A stretch of 7,855 nucleotides of DNA from the IMG/VR virus record IMGVR_UViG_2537561859_000010; one strand, 5' to 3'. Shown in pieces: positions 1 through 7,197 of the stretch (position 1 is its first letter; the number at the start of each line of letters is the position of its first letter). A program made the translations under genes and the position numbers. Below the pieces are notes generated by a model, which had not been told where the DNA came from, did not search any database, and saw only the letters and a program-made list of their open reading frames with translations. Origin of the DNA: a virus (lineage: Duplodnaviria; Heunggongvirae; Uroviricota; Caudoviricetes).

Positions 1-80
1 AGATCAGTGAAGGTAATTTAAAAACGGTTCTGTGAAAGTGACACGAACCGATCTCCATCGATGTTACTCACCGATCTCCT

Positions 81-587
81 TCACGGTAATACGCAGTCAT
101 CCACAGAAGCCGCGTCAGGCCTGAATCCGATAGTCGTTAAAATGTCGCTATCCTGTGCGGAATAATTAATTTTTTCACCCTTCGCAAGCCAGGACAGGAG
201 GGCTTCACGCAGGGCATCTGTGGCACGCTGTATGGCACAGTTTCGGGCAATGGCCGTCAGCTCACTGTAGCCCATCAGCTCCGGTGCCAGTGCCGCCGCC
301 AGTGCTGTGCCGTGCTGCTGCATAAAATCATTCAGCCGGTCGCGGATGCTGATGTGCTGAACGGCTTCATGCGAACGAATATAACGACCGGCGGCCTGAT
401 TCACCTGCCATTTTCTGACTTCGATAATATTGCGTAATTCGTCCAGGCGGCTGACGTTTCTGCCTTCTCCTGACAGAAGCCGCAGATATTCCTGTTCGGC
501 CGCTGCCAGCTCATTTTTGCGTTGCAGCCATGCTGCTTTGTTATTCTGACAGGTGTCAAAGGCCTGCTGTAAGGCTGTGCTTTCCAT
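81..587 (-). CDS. psu: Psu (polarity suppression / capsid decoration protein, Rho antagonist); ORF ends at an in-frame TGA after 168 codons
   Basis: 168-aa ORF starting MESTALQQAFDTCQNNKAAWLQRK, which I recognise as the P4 Psu N-terminus. It lies last in a same-strand sid-delta-psu array. ATG at 585-587 is preceded by a purine-rich SD-like GAGAAAGAG. The stop TGA (81-83) is followed in frame by 21 sense codons to TAA at 18-20. Confidence 0.8.
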   Translation of the reverse strand: MESTALQQAFDTCQNNKAAWLQRKNELAAAEQEYLRLLSGEGRNVSRLDELRNIIEVRKWQVNQAAGRYIRSHEAVQHISIRDRLNDFMQQHGTALAAALAPELMGYSELTAIARNCAIQRATDALREALLSWLAKGEKINYSAQDSDILTTIGFRPDAASVDDCVLP

Positions 588-2175: not shown

Positions 2176-2311
2176 CGTTGATGGGCTTTTTGTGCTGTTT
2201 ATTACTTTTTATTTTTATTAATTCACTGAAATAAATAAGAAAAAACAATTTGTATTTCACTATAATTTTTTCCAGCCCCTTCCAGAGCGTTTTAAAGCTA
2301 TCTGGCGCTGA

Positions 2312-2328
2312 TGTGCAAAAAATACACA
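2312..2328 (+). promoter_or_regulatory. Candidate P_LL activator site (Delta-type dyad, TGT-N11-ACA)
   Basis: ATGTGCAAAAAATACACAG shares the ATGTGC...ACACAG arms of the P_sid site but with a spacer 1 nt shorter. It sits about 130 bp upstream of vis and about 415-450 bp upstream of the putative P_LE. Confidence 0.4.
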
Positions 2329-2453
2329 GCCATTGTAAGACAGCCTGAACAAATCCCCCCTGTTGCGTCTGCTGAAAATATTCACAAAATAAAGCGCTAC
2401 CCGAAGCCGGACGGACTTATCCGGTGCTGTATGGACATTAACGAGGTAGCCCG

Positions 2454-2720
2454 ATGCAAGCTGTTTTTTCTTCCCCGTCTCCCGCTCCTGTAACGCCACT
2501 GATTCCGCTGCCGGACATCACGCAGGAGCGTTTTTTACGTCTGCCGGAAGTGATGCACCTGTGCGGCCTGTCACGCTCGACCATCTATGAACTCATCCGT
2601 AAGGGGGAATTTCCGCCGCAGGTGAGTCTTGGCGGTAAAAATGTGGCCTGGCTGCACTCTGAAGTCACTGCATGGATGGCCGGGCGCATTGCCGGACGCA
2701 AACGGGGGTACGACGCATGA
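2454..2720 (+). CDS. vis: Vis / AlpA-family helix-turn-helix DNA-binding regulator (excisionase-like)
   Basis: 88 aa with an AlpA-like motif ([48 protein letters not shown]). SD GAGG lies 8 nt upstream of the ATG. It is the first gene of the rightward operon. Confidence 0.8.
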
Positions 2721-3307
2721 TGATGCCTGTTCTGCAAAAACTCCCTTTTTCTGGCTTGCCTTTTTCCGGCATTTGCGGATATAGTTTTTCCGCTGCCGCA
2801 AAATCGGCAGCCGGGCGTGAGAACCCGTGTAACTCGAAGGCGACATATGACGCGCCATGCGTCTTTTTTTGTGTCGCAATCAACGCCACAGAGCGCCAGA
2901 TTATGGTGTGGCGTGTGGTTTGCCGTGCAGGTATGATCCTGTTCGCAATCACATGTTATGCCACTGAGTCAATGGTAGCTCAGGCGGGGCAGCCTCCGGG
3001 CTGGCCGGTATTCTTCGAGGCCGGTATTCTCACCCCCGTCTGGGCTATCGCCATCGAGCGTGAGAACTCCGGCGATAGCAGTTATTTGCTACTCGAAGGA
3101 GGCTGCCTTATGGCTACAACCCTTACCCCCTCACACCCTGAATTTGTCTTTGTGTTTGCCGCTGTCCGTCGCGCAGACCGTCATCCCCGTATCTGCATGC
3201 TTCGCACCGTCGCCGGTGATGAACGCAGTGCCCGCCGTTCCCTTGTCCGTGACTATGTGCTCTCCCTTGCTGCCCGTCTGCCGGTGATGGGGGTGTCCCG
3301 TGCGTAA
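2717..3307 (+). CDS. eta: Eta (long ORF containing kil in frame; translated only from upstream P_LL transcripts)
   Basis: Three consecutive ATGs (2717, 2720, 2723) preceded by GGGGG; the first overlaps the vis stop as ATGA. The frame stays open through the putative P_LE and leader to the kil stop. This matches the published nested eta/kil arrangement in P4. The N-terminal part has odd composition, so real translation is uncertain. Confidence 0.55.
2756..2785 (+). promoter_or_regulatory. Candidate P_LE sigma70 promoter (TTGCCT - 18 bp - TATAGT)
   Basis: -35-like TTGCCT (2756-2761) and -10-like TATAGT (2780-2785). A 7-bp stem-loop (2792-2811) sits at the predicted transcript start. The position is about 320 nt upstream of kil. 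Confidence 0.4.
2978..3045 (+). ncRNA. Candidate CI-like immunity RNA in the P_LE leader (boundaries approximate)
   Basis: A 12-bp stem (2978-2989 pairing with 3034-3045, two G-U pairs) encloses about 44 nt. The enclosed segment carries tandem GGCCGGTATTCT repeats whose CTTCGAG and TTCTCAC cores are complementary to repeated GTGAGAA / CTCGAAG elements upstream (2815-2840) and at the kil SD (3058-3099). Inferred from structure only. Confidence 0.3.
3110..3307 (+). CDS. kil: Kil (65-aa protein, nested in frame at the 3' end of eta)
   Basis: ATG at 3110 with strong SD GAAGGAGG 7 nt upstream. 65 codons, matching the published size of P4 kil, and it shares the eta stop. Confidence 0.7.
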
Positions 3308-3587
3308 TAAAAAAGCCCCTCAGACCGTCTCAGCGCGTCATGACGCCCGTGAACACCTCAGCATTGAGGCTTACCATAAGCTCAACCGCGCCAGCGCCGT
3401 ATCCCAGTTTGTTGGGGGTGATTTGATTCACCGTGAACTCTCCGGCCTGCATCAGCTCTACATTCCGCATATTTTCAGCTACCTGAATGAGGATATTGAT
3501 TTTGTGCTGAATGAGCTGAAAGCCAAAGGCCTGTGCCGTGATTTTCTCGCCCAGCAGAAAGACCGGGGAGACAAGACGCATGTTTGA
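3300..3587 (+). CDS. epsilon: Epsilon-like protein (P4 derepressor of helper prophage), 95 aa from a GTG start
   Basis: The ORF has no internal Met, so it starts at GTG 3300 (G-rich SD-like run upstream), overlapping the kil stop. Its position between kil and orf151 matches the P4 left operon. Product assignment is by position and size. Confidence 0.6.
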
Positions 3588-4505: not shown

Positions 4506-6839
4506 ATGAAAATGAACGTAACCGCCACCGTCAGCCATGCGCTCGGCCACTGGCCGCGTATCCTCCCGGCGCTGGGGATTCAGGTGCTGAAAAACCGTCA
4601 TCAGCCCTGTCCGGTCTGTGGCGGGAGTGACCGCTTCCGTTTTGATGACAGGGAGGGGCGCGGCACCTGGTACTGCAATCAGTGTGGTGCCGGTGACGGC
4701 CTGAAACTGGTTGAAAAGGTGTTTGGTGTTTCCCCGTCCGACGCGGCCGCAAAGGTGGCTGCCGTGACCGGCTGCCTGCCCCCGGCTGACCCGGCAGTGA
4801 CGGCCGCCGCCGGTGCTGAAACAGAAGCCGCCCGGAAGAACGCCGCCGCACTGGCACAAACCCTGATGGCGAAAACCCGTCCCGGAACCGGTAACGCCTA
4901 CCTGACCCGCAAGGGCTTTCCCGGCCGGGAATGCCGGATGCTGACCGGCACACACAGAGCCGGTGGCGTGAGCTGGCGCGCCGGTGATCTTGTGGTGCCA
5001 CTGTATGACGACAGCGGCGAACTGGTTAACCTTCAGTTAATCAGTGCTGACGGCCGTAAGCGCACCCTGAAAGGCGGACAGGTCAGGGGTACCTGTCACA
5101 CCCTTGAAGGACAGAATCAGGCCGGAAAACGTCTGTGGATAGCGGAGGGATACGCGACCGCACTTACCGTGCATCACCTGACCGGTGAAACGGTGATGGT
5201 GGCGCTTTCTTCCGTGAACCTCCTTTCTCTGGCCAGCCTTGCCCGGCAGAAGCATCCGGCCTGTCAGATTGTCTTTGCTGCTGACCGTGACCTCAGCGGT
5301 GACGGCCAGAAAAAAGCCGCCGCAGCCGCAGATGCGTGTGAAGGTGTTGTTGCCCTGCCGCCGGTCTTCGGTGACTGGAATGATGCCTTCACGCAGTACG
5401 GCGGGGGGGCCACCCGTAAGGCCATTTATGATGCCATCCGGCCACCGGCTGAAAGCCCGTTCGACACCATGAGCGAAGCGGAGTTTTCCGCCATGAGTAC
5501 CAGCGAAAAGGCCATGCGTATCTATGAGCATTACGGCGAGGCGCTCGCGGTCGATGCCAACGGCCAGCTTCTGTCCCGCTATGAAAATGGTGTCTGGAAG
5601 GTGCTGCCGCCACAGGACTTTGCCCGGGATGTGGCCGGGCTGTTTCAGCGTCTGCGCGCGCCGTTCTCCTCCGGGAAGGTGGCCTCCGTGGTGGACACCC
5701 TGAAGCTGATTATTCCGCAGCAGGAAGCCCCCTCCCGCCGCCTGATTGGCTTTCGTAACGGCGTGCTCGACACGCAGAACGGCACGTTCCACCCGCACAG
5801 TCCGTCACACTGGATGCGCACCCTGTGCGATGTGGATTTCACCCCGCCGGTGGACGGTGAAACGCTGGAGACCCACGCCCCCGCGTTCTGGCGCTGGCTT
5901 GACCGTGCCGCCGGTGGCCGTGCGGAAAAACGCGACGTGATTCTGGCCGCACTGTTTATGGTGCTGGCAAACCGCTACGACTGGCAGCTCTTTCTGGAGG
6001 TGACCGGTCCCGGCGGCAGCGGCAAAAGTATCATGGCCGAAATAGCCACCCTGCTGGCCGGTGAGGATAACGCCACGTCGGCCACCATTGAGACGCTGGA
6101 ATCCCCGCGTGAACGTGCCGCGTTAACTGGCTTCTCACTGATACGCCTGCCGGACCAGGAAAAATGGAGCGGCGACGGAGCCGGACTCAAGGCCATCACC
6201 GGCGGCGATGCGGTGTCCGTTGACCCGAAATACCGGGATGCGTACTCCACGCACATCCCGGCGGTGATTCTGGCCGTGAACAATAACCCGATGCGCTTCA
6301 CCGACCGCAGCGGCGGCGTGTCACGCCGGCGGGTGATTATTCACTTCCCGGAACAGATAGCCCCGCAGGAGCGCGACCCGCAGCTTAAGGACAAAATCAC
6401 CCGCGAGCTGGCGGTCATCGTGCGTCACCTGATGCAGAAGTTCAGCGACCCGATGCTCGCCCGGTCACTGCTTCAGTCCCAGCAGAACTCAGACGAGGCA
6501 CTGAACATCAAACGGGATACCGACCCGACGTTTGATTTTATCGGCTATCTGGAAACCCTGCCGCAGACCAGCGGCATGTATATGGGGAACGCCAGTATCA
6601 TCCCGCGTAATTACCGTAAATACCTCTATCACGCCTATCTGGCCTACATGGAGGCAAACGGCTACCGGAATGTACTCAGTCTGAAAATGTTCGGGCTGGG
6701 GCTGCCGGTGATGCTGAAGGAATACGGACTGAATTACGAGAAGCGCCATACCAAACAGGGGATACAGACCAACCTGACGCTGAAAGAGGAAAGCTACGGC
6801 GACTGGCTGCCAAAATGTGACGACCCTGCAACAACCTGA
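4506..6839 (+). CDS. alpha: Alpha primase-helicase replication protein (zinc-binding primase, Toprim, P-loop helicase, C-terminal origin-binding region)
   Basis: 777 aa. N-terminal CPVCGGSDRFRFDDREGRGTWYCNQC zinc motif. Walker A GPGGSGKS at about aa 500. SD AAGGAG 8 nt upstream. Followed by a terminator and by TGTTCACC iteron repeats. Length matches P4 alpha. Confidence 0.93.
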   Translation: MKMNVTATVSHALGHWPRILPALGIQVLKNRHQPCPVCGGSDRFRFDDREGRGTWYCNQCGAGDGLKLVEKVFGVSPSDAAAKVAAVTGCLPPADPAVTAAAGAETEAARKNAAALAQTLMAKTRPGTGNAYLTRKGFPGRECRMLTGTHRAGGVSWRAGDLVVPLYDDSGELVNLQLISADGRKRTLKGGQVRGTCHTLEGQNQAGKRLWIAEGYATALTVHHLTGETVMVALSSVNLLSLASLARQKHPACQIVFAADRDLSGDGQKKAAAAADACEGVVALPPVFGDWNDAFTQYGGGATRKAIYDAIRPPAESPFDTMSEAEFSAMSTSEKAMRIYEHYGEALAVDANGQLLSRYENGVWKVLPPQDFARDVAGLFQRLRAPFSSGKVASVVDTLKLIIPQQEAPSRRLIGFRNGVLDTQNGTFHPHSPSHWMRTLCDVDFTPPVDGETLETHAPAFWRWLDRAAGGRAEKRDVILAALFMVLANRYDWQLFLEVTGPGGSGKSIMAEIATLLAGEDNATSATIETLESPRERAALTGFSLIRLPDQEKWSGDGAGLKAITGGDAVSVDPKYRDAYSTHIPAVILAVNNNPMRFTDRSGGVSRRRVIIHFPEQIAPQERDPQLKDKITRELAVIVRHLMQKFSDPMLARSLLQSQQNSDEALNIKRDTDPTFDFIGYLETLPQTSGMYMGNASIIPRNYRKYLYHAYLAYMEANGYRNVLSLKMFGLGLPVMLKEYGLNYEKRHTKQGIQTNLTLKEESYGDWLPKCDDPATT

Positions 6840-6890: not shown

Positions 6891-7197
6891 GGTGAACAAT
6901 CCACTGTTCACCCTTCACCGTATATTCACCCGTTATCACACTGAAATTAAAAGAGAAAAATGAAAGGTGAACAGTGTGAACAATCAAATCAAAAAAAACT
7001 TTTTTTCTCCCTGTGCGATTTTCAGTACGGGTGATTTATCACCGGTATGAGTCACACCGGCAGAATGCCGGAGGTGAAGAATCGAATGTTCACCCTTCAC
7101 CCATTATTCACCACCTATCATACTGAAATAAAAGGATAAAAAAGAAAGGTGAACAGTGTGAACAGTTCTTTCGAAAAAAAATTTTTTCCTGTACGAT
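6891..7197. repeat. crr-like cis replication region: two ~120-bp direct repeats with a 182-bp period, each bounded by TGTTCACC / GGTGAACA octamers
   Basis: Unit 1 about 6905-7019 and unit 2 about 7087-7197 align along their length (TGTTCACCCTTCACC...CTGAAAT...GAAAGGTGAACAGTGTGAACA...A-run/T-run...CCTGT). The architecture matches the published description of P4 crr. Confidence 0.75.

Follow-up and report, generated by a model that had tools for sequence, protein, structure and literature searches.

Immunity Region of a P4-like Satellite Prophage of Escherichia coli, with a CI RNA and Two Targets Probably Differing in Specificity from Phage P4

Immunity Region of the Window

The locus described here is a P4-like immunity region, which most likely works as in phage P4; a probability of roughly 0.93 is given to this reading. 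It lies in a stretch of DNA of 7855 nt, the virus record IMGVR_UViG_2537561859_000010 of IMG/VR, which is called the window throughout. The region comprises a promoter, an upstream target (seqA), an intrinsic terminator, the gene of a structured antisense RNA (CI RNA) with its recognition element (seqB), and a downstream target (seqC) at the start of the small gene kil. Homology to P4, the fold of the RNA, the complementarity of the three sites and their covariation carry this reading. The system is already known, being the classic CI RNA/seqA/seqC switch of P4, of the same family as the C4 RNA of phages P1 and P7, and the window probably represents a natural specificity variant of it, and not a new kind of system.

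An arrangement of the P4 type of RNA immunity had been proposed in a preliminary description of this DNA, and it is supported by Rfam, by the predicted fold, by covariation and by the alignment with P4. The proposal had been staked beforehand on three points, and all of them came out in its favour: the predicted duplexes are stable, the motifs are conserved among P4-like elements, and the cI region of P4 maps to this position. The features of the locus and the surrounding genes are detailed in Table 1.

Table 1. Features of the immunity region and gene context of the window, with positions in the window.
Feature	Position	Strand	Details or basis
PLE-type constitutive promoter	2756–2785	+	−35 TTGCCT (2756–2761), 18-nt spacer, −10 TATAGT (2780–2785)
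Leader hairpin 1 (GCUGCCG-CAAAAU-CGGCAGC)	2792–2811	+	5′ end of leader/isrK-like RNA
seqA, upstream target, equivalent to P1 a1/b1	2812–2840	+	Rfam c4-a1b1 and pairing
Intrinsic terminator matching P4 t1 (GACGCG-CCA-UGCGUC, then U7)	2849–2870	+	Directly 3′ of seqA
CI RNA gene (C4 antisense RNA family)	2973–3053	+	Rfam C4, fold, covariation
seqB, recognition element of CI RNA	3012–3033	+	Pairing boxes a′ and b′
seqC, downstream target	3058–3102	+	Motif positions, covariation, duplex
kil, ORF of 65 codons, first translated gene after PLE	3110–3307	+	Direct reading, near-identical to P4
eta, long ORF, ATG at 2717, 2720 or 2723	2717–3307	+	Pfam Phage_ASH, 78 bits
psu, delta, sid		−	P4-like order, collinear with NC_001609
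vis (AlpA family), eta/kil, epsilon, orf151 equivalent, DUF5375, primase of 777 aa		+	Collinear with NC_001609

Element and Genomic Context

Positions 2400–3400 were 94.2% identical over their full length to phage P4 (X02534, X51522, and NC_001609), and the alignment ran base for base through the promoter, seqA, t1, cI, seqC and kil. Pfam matches to Psu, Ogr_Delta, Phage_AlpA, Phage_ASH, Derepression, DUF5375 and primase domains were obtained in the window. Its gene order, which is that of P4, and its identity with P4 mark the window as a P4-like satellite prophage of E. coli. Positions 2756–3320 matched the chromosome of E. coli FDAARGOS_1058 with 100% identity, and similar sequence was present at 1256 places in 1048 of the 5426 complete E. 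coli genomes, about a fifth of these genomes.

The order and spacing of the promoter, seqA, the terminator, CI RNA, seqC and the kil start are identical to those of the P4 immunity region, and the nested kil/eta ORFs and the flanking genes are also as in P4. The window differs from P4 by a 9-nt in-frame deletion and a diverged patch of 35 nt just upstream of the CI RNA (2930–2965), and by paired +1/−1 indels in seqC that keep the frame of eta. The mapping of the window to P4 was made through alignment, old GenBank annotations, Rfam and secondary descriptions. The practical use of these results lies in annotation, as no RNA gene is annotated at this locus in RefSeq and the overlapping eta/kil ORF is labelled there as 'Icd-like protein'.

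Promoter, seqA and Terminator

A single promoter-like site was found by a promoter scan of positions 2250–3400, namely the PLE-type promoter, whose sequence is the same as in P4 and whose TATAGT matches the '−10' feature annotated in X02534. Transcription probably begins near 2792, the first position of the isrK match. The first hairpin of the leader is paired in both the isrK and the c4-a1b1 models of Rfam and is present in the minimum-free-energy fold.

Two Rfam families matched this part of the leader over their full length: c4-a1b1 (RF03163) at 2779–2831 with 50.4 bits (gathering threshold 46.7), and isrK (RF01394) at 2792–2869 with 70.7 bits (gathering threshold 50). Within seqA, the a-box GUGAGAA (2817–2823) lies in the loop of a hairpin with the arms CGGG/CCCG (2812–2827), and the b-box CUCGAAGG occupies 2833–2840. 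The terminator that follows, which we take to be the CI-dependent t1 in the sense of Briani (2000), was found by a terminator scan, corresponds to the terminal hairpin of the isrK model and is nearly invariant in 39 P4-like loci. The promoter and the intrinsic terminator thus bracket seqA as P4-type immunity requires, and both are kept in P4. The leader had been said to carry two degenerate copies of the kil initiation region; the boxes do occur twice, but the upstream copy has neither a Shine–Dalgarno sequence nor an ATG and is followed by the terminator.

CI RNA Gene

The C4 model of Rfam (RF01695) matched positions 2968–3055 over its full length with 74.3 bits (gathering threshold 45; E = 1.5e−13). 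The RNA is made up of a closing stem of 17 bp (2973–2989 with 3034–3050), two internal hairpins and a 3′ CCA (3051–3053), which is kept as CCA or CCACC in relatives. The minimum free energy of positions 2973–3050 was −48 kcal/mol (z = −6.15), and in an alignment of 74 sequences compensatory changes were found at 12 of the 28 consensus pairs, a′ and b′ staying unpaired. By analogy with P4, the CI RNA of the window would be cut out as a stable small RNA, with mature ends placed by the covariance model at about 2973 and 3053. An RNA at 2978–3045 had been suggested earlier; there is indeed a structured RNA at that place, but its span is slightly wider. On alignment to P4 cI the changes within the CI RNA were confined to the b′ box. 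The old 'cI' CDS annotation of P4 spans the aligned stretch, so that the alignment, this annotation and the C4 match all place the cI region of P4 here.

Both halves of seqB are exposed in the fold. The b′ box UCUUCGAG (3012–3019) occupies the loop of the second hairpin, GCCGG/CCGGU, and the a′ box UUCUCAC (3027–3033) is single-stranded between this hairpin and the closing stem. They are unpaired in the C4 consensus of Rfam and in the alignment-based consensus fold, while the minimum-free-energy fold of the window's own sequence puts two weak pairs inside the b′ loop. These boxes are the sole variable parts of an otherwise conserved CI RNA, and they co-vary with seqA and seqC.

The tandem repeat GGCCGGTATTCT, described at 3003–3014 and 3019–3030, was found at exactly these positions, beginning at 3003 and 3019. 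It is a by-product: GCCGG and CCGGU are the arms of the hairpin and each is then followed by UAUUCU; the two copies of UAUUCU begin the b′ loop and the a′ single strand. The corresponding repeats of P4 are not identical (TATCCT vs TATTCT), unlike the exact repeat of the window.

seqC, kil and eta

The a-box of seqC, GUGAGAA, is located at 3060–3066 and its b-box, CUCGAAGG, at 3092–3099. As had been noticed before, this downstream b-box, CTCGAAGG, overlaps the Shine–Dalgarno sequence of kil, AAGGAGG (3096–3102), with the ATG at 3110; the end given for the leader interval, 3112, is the end of this ATG. The ORF at 3110–3307, which we take to be kil as in Forti (1999), had 65 codons in 69 of the 73 scored P4-like loci and 64 in two more.

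The eta frame includes seqA, t1, the CI RNA gene and seqC, and its last part is kil; it is translatable only from transcripts that begin upstream of PLE. In 71 of the 73 scored loci this frame had an open stretch of 357 nt or more ahead of the kil ATG, despite indels. Indels of 9 nt and of 12 nt and paired +1/−1 indels were among those tolerated by the frame through the RNA gene.

A hairpin within seqC that would sequester the Shine–Dalgarno sequence (CUCC at 3067–3070 with GGAG at 3098–3101) appeared in the minimum-free-energy fold and was rejected as not significant (z = −1.5). The columns of this CUCC/GGAG pairing were invariant in E. coli-type loci, and CUCC was not kept in more distant relatives.

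Complementarity and Covariation of the Three Sites

The repeated motif had been reported at 2815–2840 and 3058–3099, and these coordinates were exact: GCGTGAGAAC was found in the window only at 2815 and 3058, and ACTCGAAGG only at 2832 and 3091. The complements CTTCGAG and TTCTCAC, claimed to face both targets in antiparallel order, were confirmed in that order; CTTCGAG was present only at 3013, and TTCTCAC at 3027 and, without relation to these sites, at 6132. Three occurrences of the bipartite motif GTGAGAA-N(5–30)-CTCGAAG were found in the window, at 2817–2839 and 3060–3098 on the plus strand and at 3013–3033 on the minus strand, with an expectation of 0.00 from 200 dinucleotide-preserving shuffles. 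seqB is exactly complementary to seqA and to seqC over 7 + 8 nt each, with one G:U included. This is the last pair of the b-box helix (G2840 or G3099 with U3012), and it makes the helix slightly weaker than in P4. The targets had been named seqA and seqB in the preliminary description, and this naming was wrong, as the targets in P4 are seqA and seqC and seqB lies within the CI RNA (PMC4825925).

Stable duplexes were predicted with both targets. The 26-nt stretch of seqB at 3009–3034 paired with seqA at −24.5 kcal/mol (z = −2.8; 13 of 1000 shuffles as good) and with seqC at −30.5 kcal/mol (z = −4.8; none of 1000 shuffles as good), and seqC was the best plus-strand target of this 26-mer in the whole window. 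A fourth target at 7046–7100 on the plus strand (−25.6 kcal/mol) was rejected as a chance match because neither box is present there and the surrounding sequence, after alpha, is replication-repeat-like.

IMG/VR was scanned with a conserved 26-mer of the CI RNA, which gave 73 P4-like loci. The E. coli-type set consisted of 70 usable sequences (67 of these loci, together with the window and P4), and in this set the boxes varied together at all three sites while the remainder was conserved. Covariation was analysed in an alignment of 39 distinct P4-like sequences. The 15 proposed pairs between seqA and seqB were paired in 98.6% of cells and the 15 between seqB and seqC in 97.9%; when the partner was slid by 1–3 columns, the paired cells fell to 37–54%. 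Compensatory changes, on both sides of a pair, were observed at 9 of the 15 pairs. Cells changed on both sides numbered 130 for seqA–seqB and 123 for seqB–seqC, against 44 and 41 in shuffles, and the observed counts were reached by none of the 500 shuffles.

The layout was also found beyond the E. coli-type set. One genome per species was scanned with a permissive pattern, which gave 120 loci, and in 81 of them both cognate targets were present with at most one mismatch per box. These belonged to Erwinia, Serratia, Pantoea, Kosakonia, Enterobacter, Citrobacter, Yersinia, Edwardsiella, Pectobacterium, Aeromonas, Pseudomonas and others. When the box type of another locus was substituted, both targets were present in 17 of 1620 tests. 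In a matrix of 12 × 12 types, the cognate duplex ranked first in stability in all 12 seqA rows and in 11 of the 12 seqC rows.

Proposed Mode of Action

By analogy with P4, the leader would be transcribed from the constitutive promoter, and the stretch at about 2973–3053 would fold in a tRNA-like form, whose closing stem is long and is followed by CCA at the 3′ end, and be excised as stable CI RNA. The processing of the CI RNA of P4 involves RNase P and PNPase. Once released, the CI RNA would present b′ in the hairpin loop and a′ in the adjacent single strand, and these would pair in trans with the a-box and b-box of the nascent leader at two places. Pairing with seqA (2817–2840) would promote termination at 2849–2870, with feedback control of CI RNA synthesis. 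Pairing with seqC (3060–3099) would mask the ribosome-binding site of kil; the untranslated transcript would then end ahead of epsilon (derepression) and alpha (primase), and the element would stay quiescent. The block at seqC would also stop superinfecting relatives of the same type. Transcripts from further upstream would translate eta through the region and in this way escape the control.

These steps, among them processing, action in trans and termination, are transferred to the window from P4. In the primary work on P4 by Sabbattini, Forti, Briani and their colleagues (1995 to 2002), pairing at seqA reportedly enhances termination at t1, by which CI autoregulates its synthesis. Pairing at seqC is said in the same work to block the translation of kil, upon which transcription stops at t4 and at the Rho-dependent timm; transcripts from the upstream PLL promoter are said to avoid this control, since eta is translated across the region. 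Every sequence element required by the P4 model is present and conserved in the window, and nothing in the sequence contradicts immunity of the P4 type. The CI RNA of P4 has been described as a processed antisense RNA that pairs with seqA upstream and seqC downstream of cI (PMC4825925); it is a member of the C4 model of Rfam, and IsrK and C4 are structural homologues of P4 seqA and CI RNA, respectively (PMC3632133).

All three elements are contained in 285 nt of a single transcript, where pairing in cis is physically possible, and neither the covariation nor the duplex computations separate cis from trans. The leader might accordingly be regarded as a cis-only attenuator, in which seqA, seqB and seqC are alternative partners within one nascent transcript and no processed RNA acts in trans. 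We consider this improbable, given that seqB is placed inside a very stable, co-varying, tRNA-like fold with a 3′ CCA from which only a′ and b′ are exposed, and such a fold is the design of a stand-alone RNA and of an RNase P substrate. Two natural recombinants, L028 and L070, speak against it as well, as they have a mismatched seqA but matched seqB and seqC. The CI RNA of P4 acts in trans, and so do the C4 RNAs of P1 and P7. Furthermore, the P4 homologues have been described as processed antisense RNAs (PMC4825925, PMC3632133).

The preferred reading, pairing of a processed CI RNA with two targets, was also weighed against the binding of a protein. Two direct copies and one inverted copy could serve as DNA operators for a repressor of matched specificity, and covariation in an inverted DNA repeat looks just like that in base-paired RNA. 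This is very hard to sustain in view of the departures from Watson–Crick complementarity in the box pairings: G:U wobbles made up 33 of these 46 positions, when about 17% is expected from random single changes, and wobbles are neutral for RNA pairing but are mismatches between DNA sites. Moreover, the sites lie within the gene of a structured RNA, downstream of the promoter. They co-vary with no gene of the repressor type, and the sole nearby DNA-binding gene is vis, of the AlpA type. That seqA and seqC reflect a peptide motif repeated in the Eta/Ash protein is scarcely credible. The ORF of this protein does cover all of 2717–3307, is open across relatives and gives the two a-boxes the same codon phase ((2817 − 2717) mod 3 = (3060 − 2717) mod 3 = 1), but the b-boxes are in phase 2 (seqA) and 0 (seqC) and hence encode different residues, and a coding repeat cannot yield a complementary copy in seqB or coordinated changes at three sites.

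Box Types and Immunity Specificity

The a-box of the window is the same as that of P4 (GUGAGAA/UUCUCAC). On the other hand, the b-box differs from P4 at seqA, seqB and seqC in a compensatory manner, with CUCGAAGG/UCUUCGAG in the window and UUCACAGG/CCUGUGAA in P4. The b-box reads CTCGAAGG at both seqA and seqC of the window and TTCACAGG at both sites of P4, and at seqB it reads TCTTCGAG in the window and CCTGTGAA in P4. The seqB 26-mer of the window gave −30.5 kcal/mol with its cognate seqC and −22.7 kcal/mol with seqC of P4; the 26-mer of P4 gave −32.4 kcal/mol with its own seqC and −26.9 kcal/mol with that of the window. Unrelated types and shuffles gave duplexes of about −16 kcal/mol. The difference at three sites and the weaker cross duplexes indicate that the immunity specificity of the window is probably unlike that of P4, possibly with partial overlap.

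Nine E. coli-type sequences out of 70, one of them the window itself, were of the window's type, UUCUCAC/UCUUCGAG. In this set, three a-box types (GAGA, GGAA and AGGA) were combined in 12 ways with b-boxes of at least seven types, and the 81 loci of other species showed 35 types built from 5 a-box and 25 b-box types. Some loci differed in hardly anything else. Loci L019 and L054 had 6 differences in 333 columns, all of them at a-box positions of seqA, seqB and seqC, and the P4-type loci L006 and L009 differed at 6 positions in the boxes and 2 others. The variety of types and such differences point to selection for new specificities, through concerted change at three sites or short-patch conversion.

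Heteroimmune relatives are known in principle, as with P4 and phiR73 or P1 and P7. We lean slightly towards the view that the specificity of P4-like satellites is a modular antisense code of two boxes that diversifies quickly, and that the window (a = GAGA, b = CUCGAAGG) would be wholly or partly heteroimmune to P4. From the pattern of boxes, loci of different types may be heteroimmune, and a single shared box may give partial cross-immunity. The natural series of alleles could serve as an existing collection of possibly orthogonal antisense/target pairs, and also as a clean case of a three-site RNA recognition code that switches specificity with its function retained.

In L028 and L070, the seqA type was unlike that of their own seqB and seqC, which fits a crossover between t1 and cI. 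Co-resident P4-like loci were found in two genomes only in the sample; one pair differed in type and the other was identical.

Comparison with Related Systems

By covariance model, the CI RNA of the window belongs to the same family as the C4 RNA of the immI region of P1 and P7 (RF01695, RF03163). The logic is the same: in these phages the RNA is processed from the leader of the operon that it represses and has two boxes, each of which pairs with an upstream (a1/b1) and a downstream (a2/b2) target, and the latter extends into the ribosome-binding site of a small, toxic gene that is Icd-like. The systems differ in what is regulated, the antirepressor ant (icd-ant) in P1 and P7 and the P4 replication and derepression genes epsilon and alpha in the window, and in the host element, which is a plasmid prophage in the former and a satellite in the latter. 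P1 and P7 themselves differ in immunity specificity.

The leader of the window also resembles IsrK of Salmonella Gifsy-1, as the isrK model matches it at 2792–2869. To our knowledge, no trans-activating role of the IsrK kind has been ascribed to a P4-type leader. In Gifsy-1, translation of orf45-anrP is activated by the short IsrK, whose target in trans is the long isoform; the seqA RNA of P4 has been considered a structural homologue of IsrK, and STnc1160 has been proposed to correspond to CI (PMC4825925). Finally, C4-like RNAs of the linear plasmid prophages of the N15 type, phiKO2, PY54 and related ones, showed 76–83% identity with positions 2972–3080 of the window.

Box-type differences among closely related loci

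The coordinates of the features considered in this section are collected in the table below. L numbers designate P4-like or C4 loci from the comparative scans.

Features of the window.
Feature	Position	Strand	Remarks
psu	1-587	-	99% identity to P4 Psu over 164 residues
eta ORF	2717-3307	+	Reads straight across seqA, the terminator, the CI RNA gene and seqC
Two-haplotype patch	2920-2965	+	Directly upstream of the CI RNA
Stretch rich in TTCACC-type repeats (crr-like)	7046-7100	+	After alpha

The P4-like loci L019:2210-2551 and L054:4057-4398 were found to differ at exactly 6 positions in 333 aligned columns, and all six were a-box positions of the upstream target seqA, of seqB in the CI RNA and of the downstream target seqC. 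At the sequence level, this difference is a switch of the proposed immunity type without divergence of the background. L006 and L009 formed a second such pair, with 6 differences inside the boxes and 2 elsewhere.

Two further loci, L028:8598-8939 and L070:3708-4049, carried one box type in seqA and another in seqB and seqC, and on this pattern they are putative natural recombinants. Since the box type of their seqA is unlike that of seqB and seqC, full pairing of seqA with the resident CI RNA is lost. The b' box of L027 and L037 fully matched neither target, and these loci look decayed.

The patch directly upstream of the CI RNA occurred as two sharply distinct haplotypes, a short one, present in the window, and a long one (+9 nt), present in P4. 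Each of them was found with several box types, a mixing that indicates mosaicism around the RNA gene. At the psu gene, the product encoded in the window diverged from P4 Psu after 164 residues and ended at 168 aa versus 190 (…ASVDD-CVLP-stop). The divergence point resembles a junction formed by recombination with the variable region that lies downstream of psu, and Psu of the window may be C-terminally truncated.

Targets and distribution in other genera

The three-part layout of C4 RNA and targets was also present in Pseudomonas (L085, L097, L098, L101, L119, L121, L141 and others) and Aeromonas genomes, with box types of their own, in which a' reads UUUCGAC or UUGCGAC and b' reads CCUCGGAC. 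In these loci, the G:U wobble in the seqA pairing differed from that in the seqC pairing.

For the repeat-rich stretch after alpha, the primase gene, a duplex with seqB of -25.6 kcal/mol was predicted; as a seqB target this stretch, which has neither box, was rejected and judged a chance match.

Annotation and the overlapping eta ORF

The RefSeq/PGAP annotation of NZ_CP065970.1 (2205654-2206244; L196, the identical E. coli locus) listed neither the CI/C4 RNA nor the isrK-like leader as an RNA gene. Its sole feature there was the ORF that overlaps them, under the name 'host cell division inhibitor Icd-like protein'. The eta frame, which ends as kil, was kept in 71 of the 73 P4-like loci scored, despite the loss of 9 nt near 2934 and of 12 nt in L008 and, within seqC, paired +1/-1 indels. 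The overlapping eta ORF is the basis of the Pfam family Phage_ASH.
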